Source of the DNA: a virus
Lineage: Duplodnaviria > Caudoviricetes
Reading direction: 5' to 3' (one strand)
DNA length: 26,007 bases
IMG/VR virus record: IMGVR_UViG_3300048629_000014
Span: 1 to 26,007 of that record
Position 1 is the first letter of the stretch. Each line of letters begins with the position of its first letter. Position numbers and translations under genes: made by a program. The notes below the pieces were generated by a model. That model was not told where the DNA came from, searched no databases, and worked only from the letters and a program-made list of their open reading frames with translations. Shown piece by piece: positions 10,684-23,337 of the stretch.

Positions 10684-10868
10684 TTGCCAAAGTTTACACT
10701 TATATAAAGGTACAAACCTCTGTATTAGCCGAGAACTCTATACTTGAGAGAGTTTTACCTACATTTTCAACTTCTTTAGGTGCTTGTAAACGTTTGTAAA
10801 CGACTACCATTTTTGGGTAATTTTTCATCCAAATAGGAATTTTAATGACGAACGTTTCTAAATAGTAA

Positions 10869-11011
10869 GTTACAAATGTTACATAACTATGTATCAAATG
10901 TTACTTAGTAACAAATGTTACTTAGTAATTTATTAAAAATCAATACTTTATAATCCTTATGTATCAAATGTTACTAATAAAAATACTTTCCTTTTGTGTA
11001 ACAAAGGTTAC
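10869..11011. repeat. Five copies of a 14-bp imperfect palindrome GTAACA-AA-TGTTAC
   Basis: Copies at 10869, 10891, 10908, 10961 and 10998, each at most one mismatch from the consensus. Confidence 0.85.
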
Positions 11012-11203
11012 TTATTATGTCAAAAATTTTATATAACTTGACATTATAAGAGTAACAAGCTAATTAGATTGAATGATAATGAAATCTCGACTAAATAAAT
11101 TTTTCTTTTTTCTTTTTCTTTTTTAAACTTTCTACTTAGCTGAGAACAGGATAAAAGATTAATTACTACCTTTACTTTTACATACTTCTAATCTTTTGGT
11201 TGC

Positions 11204-11276
11204 GTTCTCGGCAGTAACTATACAAACTCTGCTACATAGAGTAATAGTACTTTAGCTTTCAACTACTGCCGAGAAC
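11204..11276. repeat. 13-bp inverted repeat built on the GCCGAGAAC motif
   Basis: GTTCTCGGCAGTA (11204-11216) and TACTGCCGAGAAC (11264-11276). Confidence 0.75.
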
Positions 11277-11304
11277 TATCAAAAACTTCTGTATGGTTCT
11301 CCGC

Positions 11305-13413: not shown

Positions 13414-13618
13414 GGTTTCTTAAATTTTTCTTATGAATACTATAGCTTTTCTTGAAAGCTTTTAGTTTAGAGTTCTCGGTCCTGTAGTCCTCGGTTAATG
13501 CCGAGAACACAGAACTAAGTTGACCAAGTATAGCAAAATCTATCCAGATATTACTACTAACTGTTATCTTCTTATTTTCTTTATTTATTATCATAACTAT
13601 ACTTATTATTCTTGACAA
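13406..13618 (-). CDS. Small hypothetical protein (uncertain)
   Basis: 70-aa ORF that fills the gap and overlaps both neighbours; no recognisable motif. Confidence 0.35.
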   Translation of the reverse strand: MSRIISIVMIINKENKKITVSSNIWIDFAILGQLSSVFSALTEDYRTENSKLKAFKKSYSIHKKNLRNHV

Positions 13619-21164: not shown

Positions 21165-22375
21165 TTAGATAAATGAATATTTACCTACGTTTCTTTTTAG
21201 TTTATCTCTACAAGCATAAATCACACTATCGGTGTAGTGGTCGTTACCATCCTGTAGCTTATCAATACTTTCTCCATTCTTTGTAAGCCATTCTAAATCT
21301 TCAAACTCTCTTACCAAATTTGGATCATCATAGTACACATTAATAACGTAATCATTCATACTATGTACTGCTTCTTCTTTATGTCCAGGGTATTTCTTTA
21401 TGCCGAGAACTGTACACTTTGACATACCATCTAACTCTTCAATCAAACGTGGTGCCGAACTATCAGCAATAATTACTTGTCGTTGAGGTACTGCTTGGTA
21501 CATATCAGCTATTTGTTGAGTACTTAATCCTGAACCATAACCATAACCTCTAATCCAAAGCTCACCATTATAAAACTTAACATTCGATAGTGTAGTAGGG
21601 TCAGTAAATCCGTAGTCAGAACCCCAAGAACTCCACTTCTCGTTTGAAGGCCAAGTATTAACAATGTTGAATTTAGGAAAGGCTGCAAGTTCTGCGTTTG
21701 CCATGTACCTACCCTCAAGATATACTGCTCTAAACCTTGCATTCTTACTTCCTCTGTACTCTATCTCTTCAATAAGTTCATCAGGTAAGTTCTCAAGATT
21801 GTCTTTATAAGTAGAATGAATATACTTTGTTTTAGGATTCTCTAGTAATTCAGTAATCCATTGCTTTCTACGTGTAGGATTTTGTGTAATGATAATACTA
21901 CCACTTAGTAGTCGCATTCCTACTTGGCGGAGAACACCATCAGCTTCAGGACTTAGATTAAGCTCATCAAATAAAGCATAGTCTGCCTCTATTCCTGTGA
22001 ATTTATCTTCTGCATTGTGTTCACCATGACTCATGAAATAAACTACACTACCATTTGGATAAGTAAGTGTAGCTTCCTGCTTATTGAAACTGTCTTTATT
22101 CCAATAACTACCAGCTATTTGTTTATAAGGTTTGATTAAGTTCTTTTTGGTAATAGGAACTGTTAAACCTGCCACAATAAATACTAAAGGGTTCTCACTT
22201 TTCACAGCTTTTAAATGAAATAGCTGTAAAGCAGAGTACGTCTTTGAACTTCGAGTACCAGTCAACCCCCTGTGCTAAATAAGTATCTAAAGCCTGAGTT
22301 CATCGCTTGGATGTACTTTTCGCCTACAATACCTATCTTTAGCACAGGGGTAGTATTTGTATTTACGTTATTCAT
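21165..22375 (-). CDS. terL: Terminase large subunit (PBSX-like), interrupted by an 8-nt insert in Walker A; about 400 aa if joined
   Basis: Segment 1, 22375-22265, reads MNNVN...RYLFSTGG then TGA. Segment 2, from 22256, reads TRSSKTY... with Walker B YALFDE, NP motif, HSTYKDN, nuclease GSDYGFTDPT and DHYTDSVIYA. Confidence 0.85.
22267..22350. repeat. Perfect 13-bp inverted repeat in the terL 5' segment
   Basis: CCCCTGTGCTAAA (22267-22279) and TTTAGCACAGGGG (22338-22350), 58-nt spacer. Confidence 0.9.
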
Positions 22376-22908
22376 AATCTTCTTCCTTTGTTGTCTGTTC
22401 TAAGTATATGCTTCAATGTATTTACATTTATACCAAATCTATCTGCTACATCTGCTCTACCATAGTTTACTCCTTTGAGCTTTTTCTGAGTGGCAACGTA
22501 TCTTCTAACTTCTTTTACAAAATCATCAGAATATTTACCCATACCATTGTTCAAACCTTTTTGAGGTTTAGCCTTGCCGTAAATATACCCTCTTCTTACG
22601 TTTTCAGAGTGAGGTATATACCAAAGATTATCTAAATTATTGTTTAACGAATTTCCATCTTTATGGTCTATATCGTAATTACTTCCTGGTCGTTCTCCTT
22701 TAAAAGTTAAAACTTCAATTACGTGAACAGAAACTGTTTTATACTCTCCTTCATCACTTTTCAACATTGTTTTATAATAACCACCTGTGACAGCAGGTTT
22801 TAATACTTTAACCCTTCCTGTTCTTTTGTAATTAAGACTTCTAATTCTTCCAAGATTGCTAACTTCATAGCCTGTGAATCCTGGTATCACTTTCCATATT
22901 TCTTCCAT
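22372..22908 (-). CDS. NUMOD4-HNH homing endonuclease
   Basis: EEIWKVIPGFTGYEVSNLGRIRS (NUMOD4), IDHKDGNSLNNNLDNL..IPHSEN (HNH), C-terminal HTH-like segment. Its stop overlaps the terL ATG (ATGA). Confidence 0.9.
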   Translation of the reverse strand: MEEIWKVIPGFTGYEVSNLGRIRSLNYKRTGRVKVLKPAVTGGYYKTMLKSDEGEYKTVSVHVIEVLTFKGERPGSNYDIDHKDGNSLNNNLDNLWYIPHSENVRRGYIYGKAKPQKGLNNGMGKYSDDFVKEVRRYVATQKKLKGVNYGRADVADRFGINVNTLKHILRTDNKGRRL

Positions 22909-22911
22909 AAC

Positions 22912-23259
22912 TTATTCATCTAAAAATTTATCTAAATCTTTCTTGGCATCTTTGTTTTGTACTACAACTTTTAAGTTATCACCATTAATGTTTATAGTAC
23001 CTTGGTTTAGGTTCTTGGTAAATGACAAATACTTTAAAGCCGTGTCAACATCATCCATGTTATTTTCTACAGTTTCTATAGCTTTATCTCGTAAAGCAAT
23101 TCGTGCTTCTTCAACTACACCTCGTAGGTCAAACTCACGTATATACTTATAGATTGTTTCTCTACTTGCACCATAAGCTTTCACTACTTTACTTATATTA
23201 CCTCCTGCATTGTATATATTTTCTGTGAGGTCCTTCTTTGTTATATTTAATTTCTCCAT
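22912..23259 (-). CDS. Putative terminase small subunit
   Basis: 115 aa with N-terminal HTH (GNISKVVKAYGASRETIYKY) and a helical oligomerisation region; upstream of terL. Confidence 0.7.
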   Translation of the reverse strand: MEKLNITKKDLTENIYNAGGNISKVVKAYGASRETIYKYIREFDLRGVVEEARIALRDKAIETVENNMDDVDTALKYLSFTKNLNQGTININGDNLKVVVQNKDAKKDLDKFLDE

Positions 23260-23297
23260 AATATGTTTTCCTCCTTTCTGTACTATTATAAAGGTTT

Positions 23298-23328
23298 AAA
23301 GCAAACCCCAACTTATGCTGAGGTTTGC
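23298..23328 (-). terminator. Probable intrinsic terminator or hairpin
   Basis: Minus strand GCAAACCTCAGC-ATAA-GTTGGGGTTTGC (12 bp including G-U pairs), then a short TTT. Confidence 0.55.
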
Positions 23329-23337
23329 CACAATAAA

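Follow-up and report, generated by a model that had tools for sequence, protein, structure and literature searches.

A stable mRNA hairpin abuts an 8-nucleotide frame break in the Walker A codons of two distantly related phage terminase genes

The terL gene, which serves phage DNA packaging, is essential. We describe a terL gene that lies in two reading frames in IMGVR_UViG_3300048629_000014, a Caudoviricetes record of the IMG/VR database (positions 1-26,007; this whole stretch of 26,007 nucleotides [nt] is called the window below). Its first open reading frame (ORF) is closed by a UGA codon within the Walker A motif, and skipping 8 nt restores both the motif and colinearity with uninterrupted relatives. 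A highly stable mRNA hairpin ends on the Gly codon that precedes the stop, and a second, distantly related terminase gene has the same break abutted by a hairpin of different sequence. We put at about 55% the probability that refolding of the hairpin behind a ribosome paused at UGA drives, or locks in, an 8-nt hop of peptidyl-tRNA(Gly) from one GGU codon to the next.

RESULTS

terL is split between two frames by exactly 8 nt

The first ORF of terL (ORF1) has 37 codons and ends in GGG GGU, followed by UGA (Table 1). After the take-off GGU come UGA, CU, and then GGU-ACU in the -1 frame, in which the remainder of the gene continues as LTG-TRSSKTYSALQLFHLKAV down to position 21165. The gene thus carries exactly 8 extra nt, UGACUGGU or, equivalently, GGUUGACU. 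Skipping them gives FSTGG joined directly to TRSSKTYSALQLFH, and the Walker A motif then reads GGTRSSKT. The product has the features of a large terminase subunit of the PBSX type (Terminase_3/Terminase_6N), namely, a Walker A ATPase and an RNase H-like nuclease, with Pfam matches to PF03237, PF04466 and PF17288 (Terminase_6N, Terminase_3 and Terminase_3C).

Table 1. Coordinates of terL, its interruption and the adjoining genes in the window
Feature	Positions	Strand	Description
terL ORF1	22265..22375	-	ATG at 22375 to take-off GGU (codon 37, 22267-22265); encodes MNNVNTNTTPVLKIGIVGEKYIQAMNSGFRYLFSTGG
Coding gap UGACU	22260..22264	-	5 nt; begins with in-frame stop UGA, 22264-22262
Landing codon GGU	22257..22259	-	Same as take-off codon, 8 nt 3' of it
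terL ORF2	21165..22256	-	Resume codon ACU (22256-22254) to stop; begins TRSSKTYSALQLFH; encodes the remainder of Walker A and the ATPase and nuclease domains
mRNA hairpin	22267..22350	-	84 nt; outer 13-bp complement, inner 10-bp helix, apical helices
Shine-Dalgarno-like AGGGGGU	22265..22271	-	5 nt 5' of landing codon; overlaps the foot of the 3' arm and the take-off codon
NUMOD4 + HNH_3 gene, homing-endonuclease type	22372..22908	-	Between terS and terL; stop codon overlaps terL ATG
terS, putative small terminase subunit (helix-turn-helix)	22912..23259	-	Immediately 5' of the HNH gene

The closest uninterrupted relative, P0002, is 67% identical, and its nuclease domain matches the SPP1 terminase structure 2wbn. 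The product obtained by skipping 8 nt is colinear with P0002: residues 7-37 of ORF1 correspond to its residues 3-33 and ORF2, starting with the ACU codon, to its residues 34-395, with no residue gained or lost. At the junction P0002 reads FSTGGTRSSKTYSALQLFH (longer stretch, RYIFSTGGTRSSKTYSALQLFH). In 162 fetched loci of relatives, the 8-residue Walker A motif was contiguous in 157, and the other five comprised an intein (L057), a short upstream sequence, two cuts by contig ends and one miss of the regular expression. A looser count found the motif in 158 of the 162 loci, and its first Gly was invariant in 158/158.

UGA is the least used stop codon of the record, where it ends 3/32 ORFs, and the 31 ORFs other than terL are open and tightly packed. 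Decoding of UGA as a sense codon (genetic codes 4 or 25) was rejected, because TAA is then reached 17 codons later in the wrong frame. The initial annotation had held that the interruption is not an error, and this was borne out: positions 22221-22950 recur in a second sample from a second study, the hydrothermal vent metagenome of run X2, with 0 differences and 0 gaps at a depth of 11.8. The break is therefore not an assembly error. The samples that hold this phage are hydrothermal vent metagenomes.

The hairpin ends on the take-off codon and is the most stable of the record

A repeat search revealed an inverted repeat at 22267-22279 and 22338-22350, with arms of 13 nt that are 100% complementary and lie 58 nt apart. 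Read on the minus strand, CCCCUGUGCUAAA (22350-22338) is fully complementary to UUUAGCACAGGGG (22279-22267). The 5' arm lies in codons 9-13 of terL (acC CCU GUG CUA AAg), and the 3' arm, UUU AGC ACA GGG G, ends with a G that is the first base of codon 37 (GGU). A perfect 13-bp stem ending at the take-off codon had been put forward in the initial annotation, and its arms, the distance between them and the final G all proved exact. The spacer was correctly described as 58 nt long; it does not form a loop, being itself paired within a single hairpin. In the predicted fold, the outer helix measures 11 bp and is followed by an AA bulge in the 5' strand, by a helix of 10 bp and by three short helices at the apex, for a length of about 32 bp including bulges, and the 21 nt adjoining the P site can pair without interruption.

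The minimum free energy (MFE) of the hairpin is -40.9 kcal/mol, compared with -16.8 ± 3.0 kcal/mol for shuffled sequences (z -8.15; 0/200 equal). Among 84-nt windows slid along both strands (12,962 in all) it ranks first, and the best unrelated one reaches -30.5 kcal/mol. As no synonymous recoding of the 37 codons attained this MFE (0/3,000 weighted by codon usage and 0/3,000 uniform), the hairpin is not a by-product of the protein sequence. Rare codons occur in its arms: GGG accounts for 20 of the 531 Gly codons, and AGC and GTG are found at 4.7 and 5.1 per 1,000 codons. Folding of the sense strand is more favorable than that of the antisense strand by 8.9 kcal/mol (-40.9 versus -32.0 kcal/mol), an advantage that is expected with G·U pairs and points to an element acting at the RNA level.

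The record contains two perfect inverted repeats of at least 13 bp with a spacer of at most 150 nt, versus a mean of 0.147 in 300 dinucleotide shuffles of the whole 26-kb sequence, 11% of which have at least one. The terL hairpin is the only strong one located inside a coding region, the others being intergenic. An Rfam search gave no family at the hairpin, and no tRNA genes were found in the record. An intrinsic transcription terminator was considered and rejected: the stem is followed by GUUGACUGGUAC with no U run, and the site lies inside a coding sequence.

A second terminase gene has the same break and its own hairpin

IMG/VR was scanned for the pattern GGN GGN stop NN GGN ACN followed by the rest of Walker A. 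The sole match was in another terL gene (Pfam), at a locus called L245 here, and a second site pattern returned the L245 contig again and nothing else in that database. The same pattern matched 22 times in 596 Gb of prokaryote genomes, never in a terminase, which we took as the noise level; the L245 match is therefore not attributable to noise.

ORF1 of L245 (1526-1636) also has exactly 37 codons and ends in GCU UUG CAA GGG GGU UGA. The stop is followed by AU and then by GGU ACA AGA AGC GGU AAA ACA, i.e., G-TRSGKT in the -1 frame. Both genes are thus broken by GGG-GGU-UGA-NU-GGU-AC in the same Walker A codons, with a common core of AGGGGGUUGA(C/A)UGGUAC. The two TerL proteins are 28% identical (103/374), the small terminase subunits of the two phages belong to different families, and those fetched loci that come closest to L245 have no interruption (L035, 48%; L049, 47%; L124, 46%).

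In the L245 hairpin, which totals 43 nt, (U)CCCUUGCAA pairs with UUGCAAGGG(G) and is complemented by a 7-bp inner helix. Its 3' strand stops at the final G of GGG or at the first G of the take-off GGU. With an MFE of -23.2 kcal/mol (z -5.05; 0/200 shuffles equal), it ranks first among 2,999 windows of its contig, and its MFE was reached by 0/3,000 usage-weighted and 11/3,000 uniform synonymous recodings. The hairpins of the two genes differ in sequence, and at the base of both stems a run of C pairs with a run of G.

The length of ORF1 is the same in both interrupted genes, and N-terminal length varies widely among relatives. Thirty-seven codons is close to the peptide length that fills the ribosomal exit tunnel, an agreement that may be coincidental. 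No KKYK-like motif was evident by eye in either ORF1. Transfer of a shared mobile N-terminal module was also considered and was discarded, the two 37-residue peptides being about 19% identical by eye.

The stem is found with the interruption

As controls we used the DNA of 133 distinct uninterrupted relatives, all of which, except L001, are at most 37% identical. In each, we determined the longest perfect stem that ends at the equivalent base and has its 5' arm within 110 nt. It was shorter than 4 bp in 69 relatives and measured 4 bp in 51, 5 bp in 12 and 6 bp in a single one, compared with 13 bp in the window and 9 bp in L245. The equivalent 84 nt of the controls had a mean MFE of -16.1 ± 5.2 kcal/mol, from which the window deviates with a z of -7.9 after regression on GC content.

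L001, which is 51% identical and uninterrupted, is the only close relative whose DNA was compared; P0002 was compared by protein. A 141-nt fold gave -20 kcal/mol in L001 (z -2.3) versus -47.5 kcal/mol in the window (z -6.7). P0002 has K-Q-I-L-K where the window has T-P-V-L-K and, to judge from the genetic code, cannot encode the 5' arm. The initial annotation had raised the possibility that the 5' arm accompanies the insert only, and a stem of more than 6 bp was indeed present in 2/2 interrupted and 0/133 uninterrupted terL genes. None of these uninterrupted homologues had an equal stem. That the stem belongs to the interruption is thus well supported.

Further relatives of the region were sought in several collections. 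For the closest relatives, P0002, P0003 and P0004, no DNA was found in IMG/VR. A megablast search against 50,697 phage records gave no match, and tblastn retrieved only terL genes less than 30% identical, including those of Bacteroides, Parabacteroides and Flavobacterium phages. A scan of 32 of the 64 parts of a metagenome collection yielded, among the matches listed, only relatives at most 34% identical, and a genome-collection scan found no relative. When short N-terminal fragments were sought as signs of other broken genes, only the 37-residue ORF of the window itself was recovered. Three relatives, P0004 (347 amino acids [aa], 66%), P0011 (348 aa, 42%) and P0010 (317 aa, 44%), on contigs of 7.4, 3.5 and 12.8 kb, respectively, are called from just past Walker A or later; they may be interrupted too.

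Refolding of the hairpin as a possible driver of a proposed hop

From these sequences we infer that the ribosome hops and that the hairpin pushes it. In the mechanism that we propose, the ribosome would pause with GGU in its P site and UGA in its A site, the inner (and apical) helices having already re-formed outside the ribosome. The 21 nt next to the P site would then zip up as they leave, pulling the mRNA by about 8 nt through the ribosome. The tRNA(Gly) would re-pair with the second GGU, perhaps aided by the Shine-Dalgarno (SD)-like AGGGGGU sequence located 5 nt upstream, and decoding would resume at ACU.

The calculated energetics are compatible with such a movement. An 8-nt advance at take-off gains -9.9 kcal/mol of upstream folding when 12 nt are protected by the ribosome, and from -8.7 to -14.7 kcal/mol for 9 to 13 shielded nt. 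Over the record the mean gain is -1.7 ± 1.8 kcal/mol, and 7 of the 2,576 sampled positions match -9.9 kcal/mol, one of them on the same hairpin. In the model proposed for T4 gene 60, unidirectional forward movement is powered by pairing of the exiting mRNA, which is considered most favorable when uninterrupted (10.1101/2024.12.09.627546). Hairpins that refold 0 to 2 nt from a shift site are reported to increase forward shifts and to attenuate backward ones, also with 70S ribosomes, and their effect grows with stability and proximity in the experiments described (PMC6321510, PMC3639245). The "zip up and push" action suggested by the initial annotation would agree both with this published exit-side pairing and with the calculated gain of about -10 kcal/mol.

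Several points weigh against a hop powered by the hairpin. The gain calculated for L245 is modest, at -5.3 kcal/mol with a 12-nt offset, and 36 of 828 positions are as low. When a hairpin reaches the P-site codon, its pairing is necessarily incomplete both at take-off and at landing, and the 8-nt forward slide allows only about eight additional pairs to form (12 nt shielded). The AGGGGGU sequence is found at the same 5-nt distance in L245, but it is given little weight because SD-like motifs are found upstream of only 5/32 ORFs of the record, and its contribution may be nil. Interrupted genes number only two, and the lineage of the window has yielded just one sequence (0 differences between the two samples), without base-pair covariation within the lineage. 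Finally, a -1 slip on G-GGU-UGA would give the same frame as the hop, and hairpins may be mutational hot spots, which would explain the co-occurrence without any function. These two possibilities are weighed below with other explanations.

Other explanations of the break and of the hairpin

A programmed -1 frameshift, in which peptidyl-tRNA(Gly) moves back from GGU onto GGG with UGA in the A site and the hairpin pauses, spaces or tunes the event, appears unlikely. The -1 frame is indeed the terL frame and the -1 path is open in both genes; moreover, a G precedes GGU, so that two of three pairs would survive the slip, and both keep five consecutive G before U-UGA. However, the slip would yield STGG-LTG-TRSSKT in the window (junction, STGGLTGTRSSK) and QGG-LNG-TRSGKT in L245. 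It would thereby add three residues within Walker A and place T or N where Gly is invariant in 158/158 relatives, and 0/157 contiguous Walker A motifs have such an insert. Both genes read A GGG GGU at this site, which does not conform to an X XXY YYZ heptamer, and the 99 nt from take-off onward have no significant structure (z -0.17; L245, z -1.24). In addition, upstream hairpins abutting the shift site attenuate -1 shifting in the systems reported (PMC3639245, PMC6321510).

We give less credence to a role of the hairpin in regulating or processing the terL mRNA, for example as an RNase III site, a stabilizer or a translation brake, unlinked to decoding of the break. With about 32 bp including bulges it resembles substrates of double-strand-specific RNases, strong hairpins elsewhere in the record are intergenic, and the 5' stem-loops of the gene 60 cassettes are poorly conserved (10.1101/2022.08.31.505936). 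This explanation nevertheless does not account for the 3' strand ending on the take-off codon in two unrelated sequences, nor for the absence of the stem in the 133 uninterrupted relatives, and this hairpin is the only strong one of the record within a coding region.

Slightly less probable still is a mutational origin, in which the insertion would have arisen from a hairpin in the DNA at the replication fork or from nuclease cleavage at the foot of that hairpin, leaving a terL gene that is dead or rescued by a helper. Palindromes are hot spots for insertions and deletions. In the window a gene for an HNH endonuclease is found 113 nt upstream, and the presence of inteins in the same codons of relatives (P0013 and L057) suggests that this DNA is often cut. 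A mutational accident fits poorly, however, with the near-identical inserts TGACTGGT and TGAATGGT in two phages whose TerL proteins are so distant, with the stop placed right after a Gly codon and the matched landing codon in both, with the intact state of both flanking ORFs amid 31 other open, tightly packed ORFs, or with the unchanged sequence in the second sample at a depth of about 12; the hairpins themselves would still need an explanation.

Termination at UGA and re-initiation at the overlapping UUG (gGUUGA), giving a 37-residue peptide and a short TerL beginning M-T-G-T-R-S-S-K-T, is highly improbable: UUG overlaps UGA in both genes, the ORF listing starts the downstream ORF there and an SD-like G run lies just upstream, but that run is only 0 to 1 nt from UUG, the short protein would lack the strand leading into the P-loop and the invariant first Gly, and neither the hairpin nor the matched GGU is given a role.

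The HNH gene and inteins in the Walker A codons

The HNH gene abuts terL in the window and is absent from the terS/terL junction of L001, where the two genes abut. No HNH_3 gene was found by Pfam in the 6-kb L245 contig; the link between the HNH gene and the break therefore holds in one of the two cases and is speculative. The sequence of a P0003-like relative in run X3 departs from that of the window precisely where terS meets the HNH gene, which is a thin hint at most; contigs of that run do not extend to the break at a similarity of 80% or more.

Inteins occupy the same Walker A codons in P0013 (..ILVHN/SSKT) and in L057, upstream of position 2501 (..ILVHN/SGKT), 6 nt from the insert site of the window. 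The Walker A DNA is therefore a homing target. As a speculation, the 8-nt insert could give immunity, being 6 nt from the intein site, much as the 50-nt insert of gene 60 does against MobA. In the MobA cassette, as in the window, a homing endonuclease gene adjoins the interrupted gene, whereas L245 has no HNH_3 gene within its 6 kb.

A broader scenario can be proposed tentatively, and we think it more doubtful than the hop itself. A conserved cassette, made of the hairpin and GGG-GGU-UGA-NU-GGU, would have been placed independently or by horizontal transfer in the Walker A codons of unrelated terminases, where it would break the target of an intein or endonuclease. Exit-side refolding alone would then power an efficient 8-nt bypass.

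Other features of the window

The 8-mer GTTCTCGG is present in 24 copies on both strands of the 26-kb record, versus 0.15 expected (0/100 shuffles reach this number), with sites, e.g., at 11204-11211, 11269-11276, 13472-13479, 13501-13508 and 21403-21410. The base that follows it is C in 17/24 copies, and its flanks are not conserved. Two inverted pairs of GTTCTCGG form intergenic hairpins at 11204/11276 and 13472/13508. Positions 10684-11304 constitute a gene-free stretch of about 620 nt in a tightly packed array of minus-strand genes, and hold imperfect inverted repeats (10898-10984) as well as the other perfect 13-bp inverted repeat of the record (11204/11264).

Upstream of terS, a 13-bp stem-loop (GCAAACCUCAGCA....UGGGGUUUGC; 23296-23330, minus strand) separates the preceding ORF from the strong terS ribosome-binding site, AAAGGAGG; Logan contigs of run X2 end near this stem-loop. 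Most ORFs are preceded by A/T-rich sequence. These upstream regions resemble those of Bacteroidota-type initiation, consistent with the occurrence of terL relatives in phages of Bacteroides, Parabacteroides and Flavobacterium.

DISCUSSION

The recurrence of one break in terminases that are 28% identical, with nearest relatives that are uninterrupted, means that frame-broken "pseudogenes" affecting the most conserved motif of an essential phage gene can be genuine. Annotation pipelines currently split or truncate such genes; the terL product proposed by the gene caller for the window begins 20 residues past Walker A.

To our knowledge, natural bypassing is known from very few cases, namely, T4 gene 60 and its cassettes, the byps of yeast mitochondria and the candidate in Hau3. 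A literature search limited to one library, on terminase bypassing and short hops, found no description of the cassette of the window and L245 beyond the gene 60 and Hau3 works.

The Hau3 case is that of a terminase. Two 10-nt inserts in the terminase gene of this Streptomyces phage are proposed to be bypassed (Smith et al. 2013, as cited in PMC10732093), and bypassing was shown in Escherichia coli with a UAA variant (PMC10732093). In both phages short blocks break the frame of the large terminase gene between flanks that are adjacent in uninterrupted relatives. As described for Hau3, the take-off codon encodes Gly (junction GWG/NDPLL), a 5' stem-loop and a flanking SD sequence are proposed to contribute, and a shift by 1 nt would place extra residues in a conserved junction (PMC10732093). 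The Hau3 blocks are 10 nt long rather than 8 nt, occupy other positions of the protein in a phage of a high-GC host, and begin with the rare sense codon UUA, presented as a sensor of a host tRNA, whereas the block of the window begins with a stop (PMC10732093). Stem-loops were compared here across interrupted and uninterrupted genes and in two distant phages, a comparison not made for the Hau3 stem-loops (PMC10732093).

The synthetic "stop-hops" of E. coli (Weiss et al. 1987) share with the window matched codons around a stop, re-pairing a few nt downstream and a slow-to-decode A site as the trigger, as they are summarized in a later account (PMC5009743). According to the same account they were in-frame, engineered and low-level events without a dedicated mRNA structure (PMC5009743). 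In contrast, the hop proposed here would change the frame, and it would take place in a natural essential gene with a conserved hairpin.

Refolding upstream hairpins studied in other systems are, like that of the window, stable structures with a 3' foot 0 to 2 nt from the shift site and an action on the exit side of the ribosome (PMC3639245, PMC6321510). They were engineered constructs or a coronavirus attenuator that affect 1-nt shifts, and no natural case coupled to a hop of several nt figures in those papers (PMC3639245, PMC6321510).

The closest parallel in design is T4 gene 60, whose take-off and landing codons are also matched Gly codons, with a stop directly 3' of the codon used for take-off (10.1101/2024.12.09.627546). 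Its upstream stem-loop is likewise proposed to act by pairing of the exiting mRNA, and an SD-like GAG lies 6 nt 5' of its landing codon, where the window has AGGGGGU at 5 nt, in the description given there (10.1101/2024.12.09.627546). The differences are nonetheless considerable. The gap of the window is 5 nt (8-nt shift) instead of 50 nt, without an AU-rich region to be scanned, and it is too short to hold the take-off (A-site) stem-loop found in the gap of gene 60. The hairpin of the window is far more stable. The initial annotation had stated that the stem-loop arrangement differs from that of gene 60; this is true of its spacing to the take-off codon (0 nt versus 9 nt), but gene 60 has a comparable 5' stem-loop and the difference is smaller than was suggested. 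The interrupted genes, a terminase and a topoisomerase, have no sequence homology. Because it has a 5-nt gap with no stem-loop and no homology to gene 60, the break of the window is an analogue of gene 60 and not a member of its cassette family.

For exit-side pairing of mRNA as a driver of forward movement, the argument still comes from a single, complicated system with a 50-nt gap. With its 5-nt gap, no take-off hairpin and a very strong stem, the terL gene of the window would be a stripped-down counterpart. As synonymous changes can be made in its 5' arm, whose codons are poorly conserved, the "driver" idea formulated for gene 60 could be tested directly here with a small reporter.

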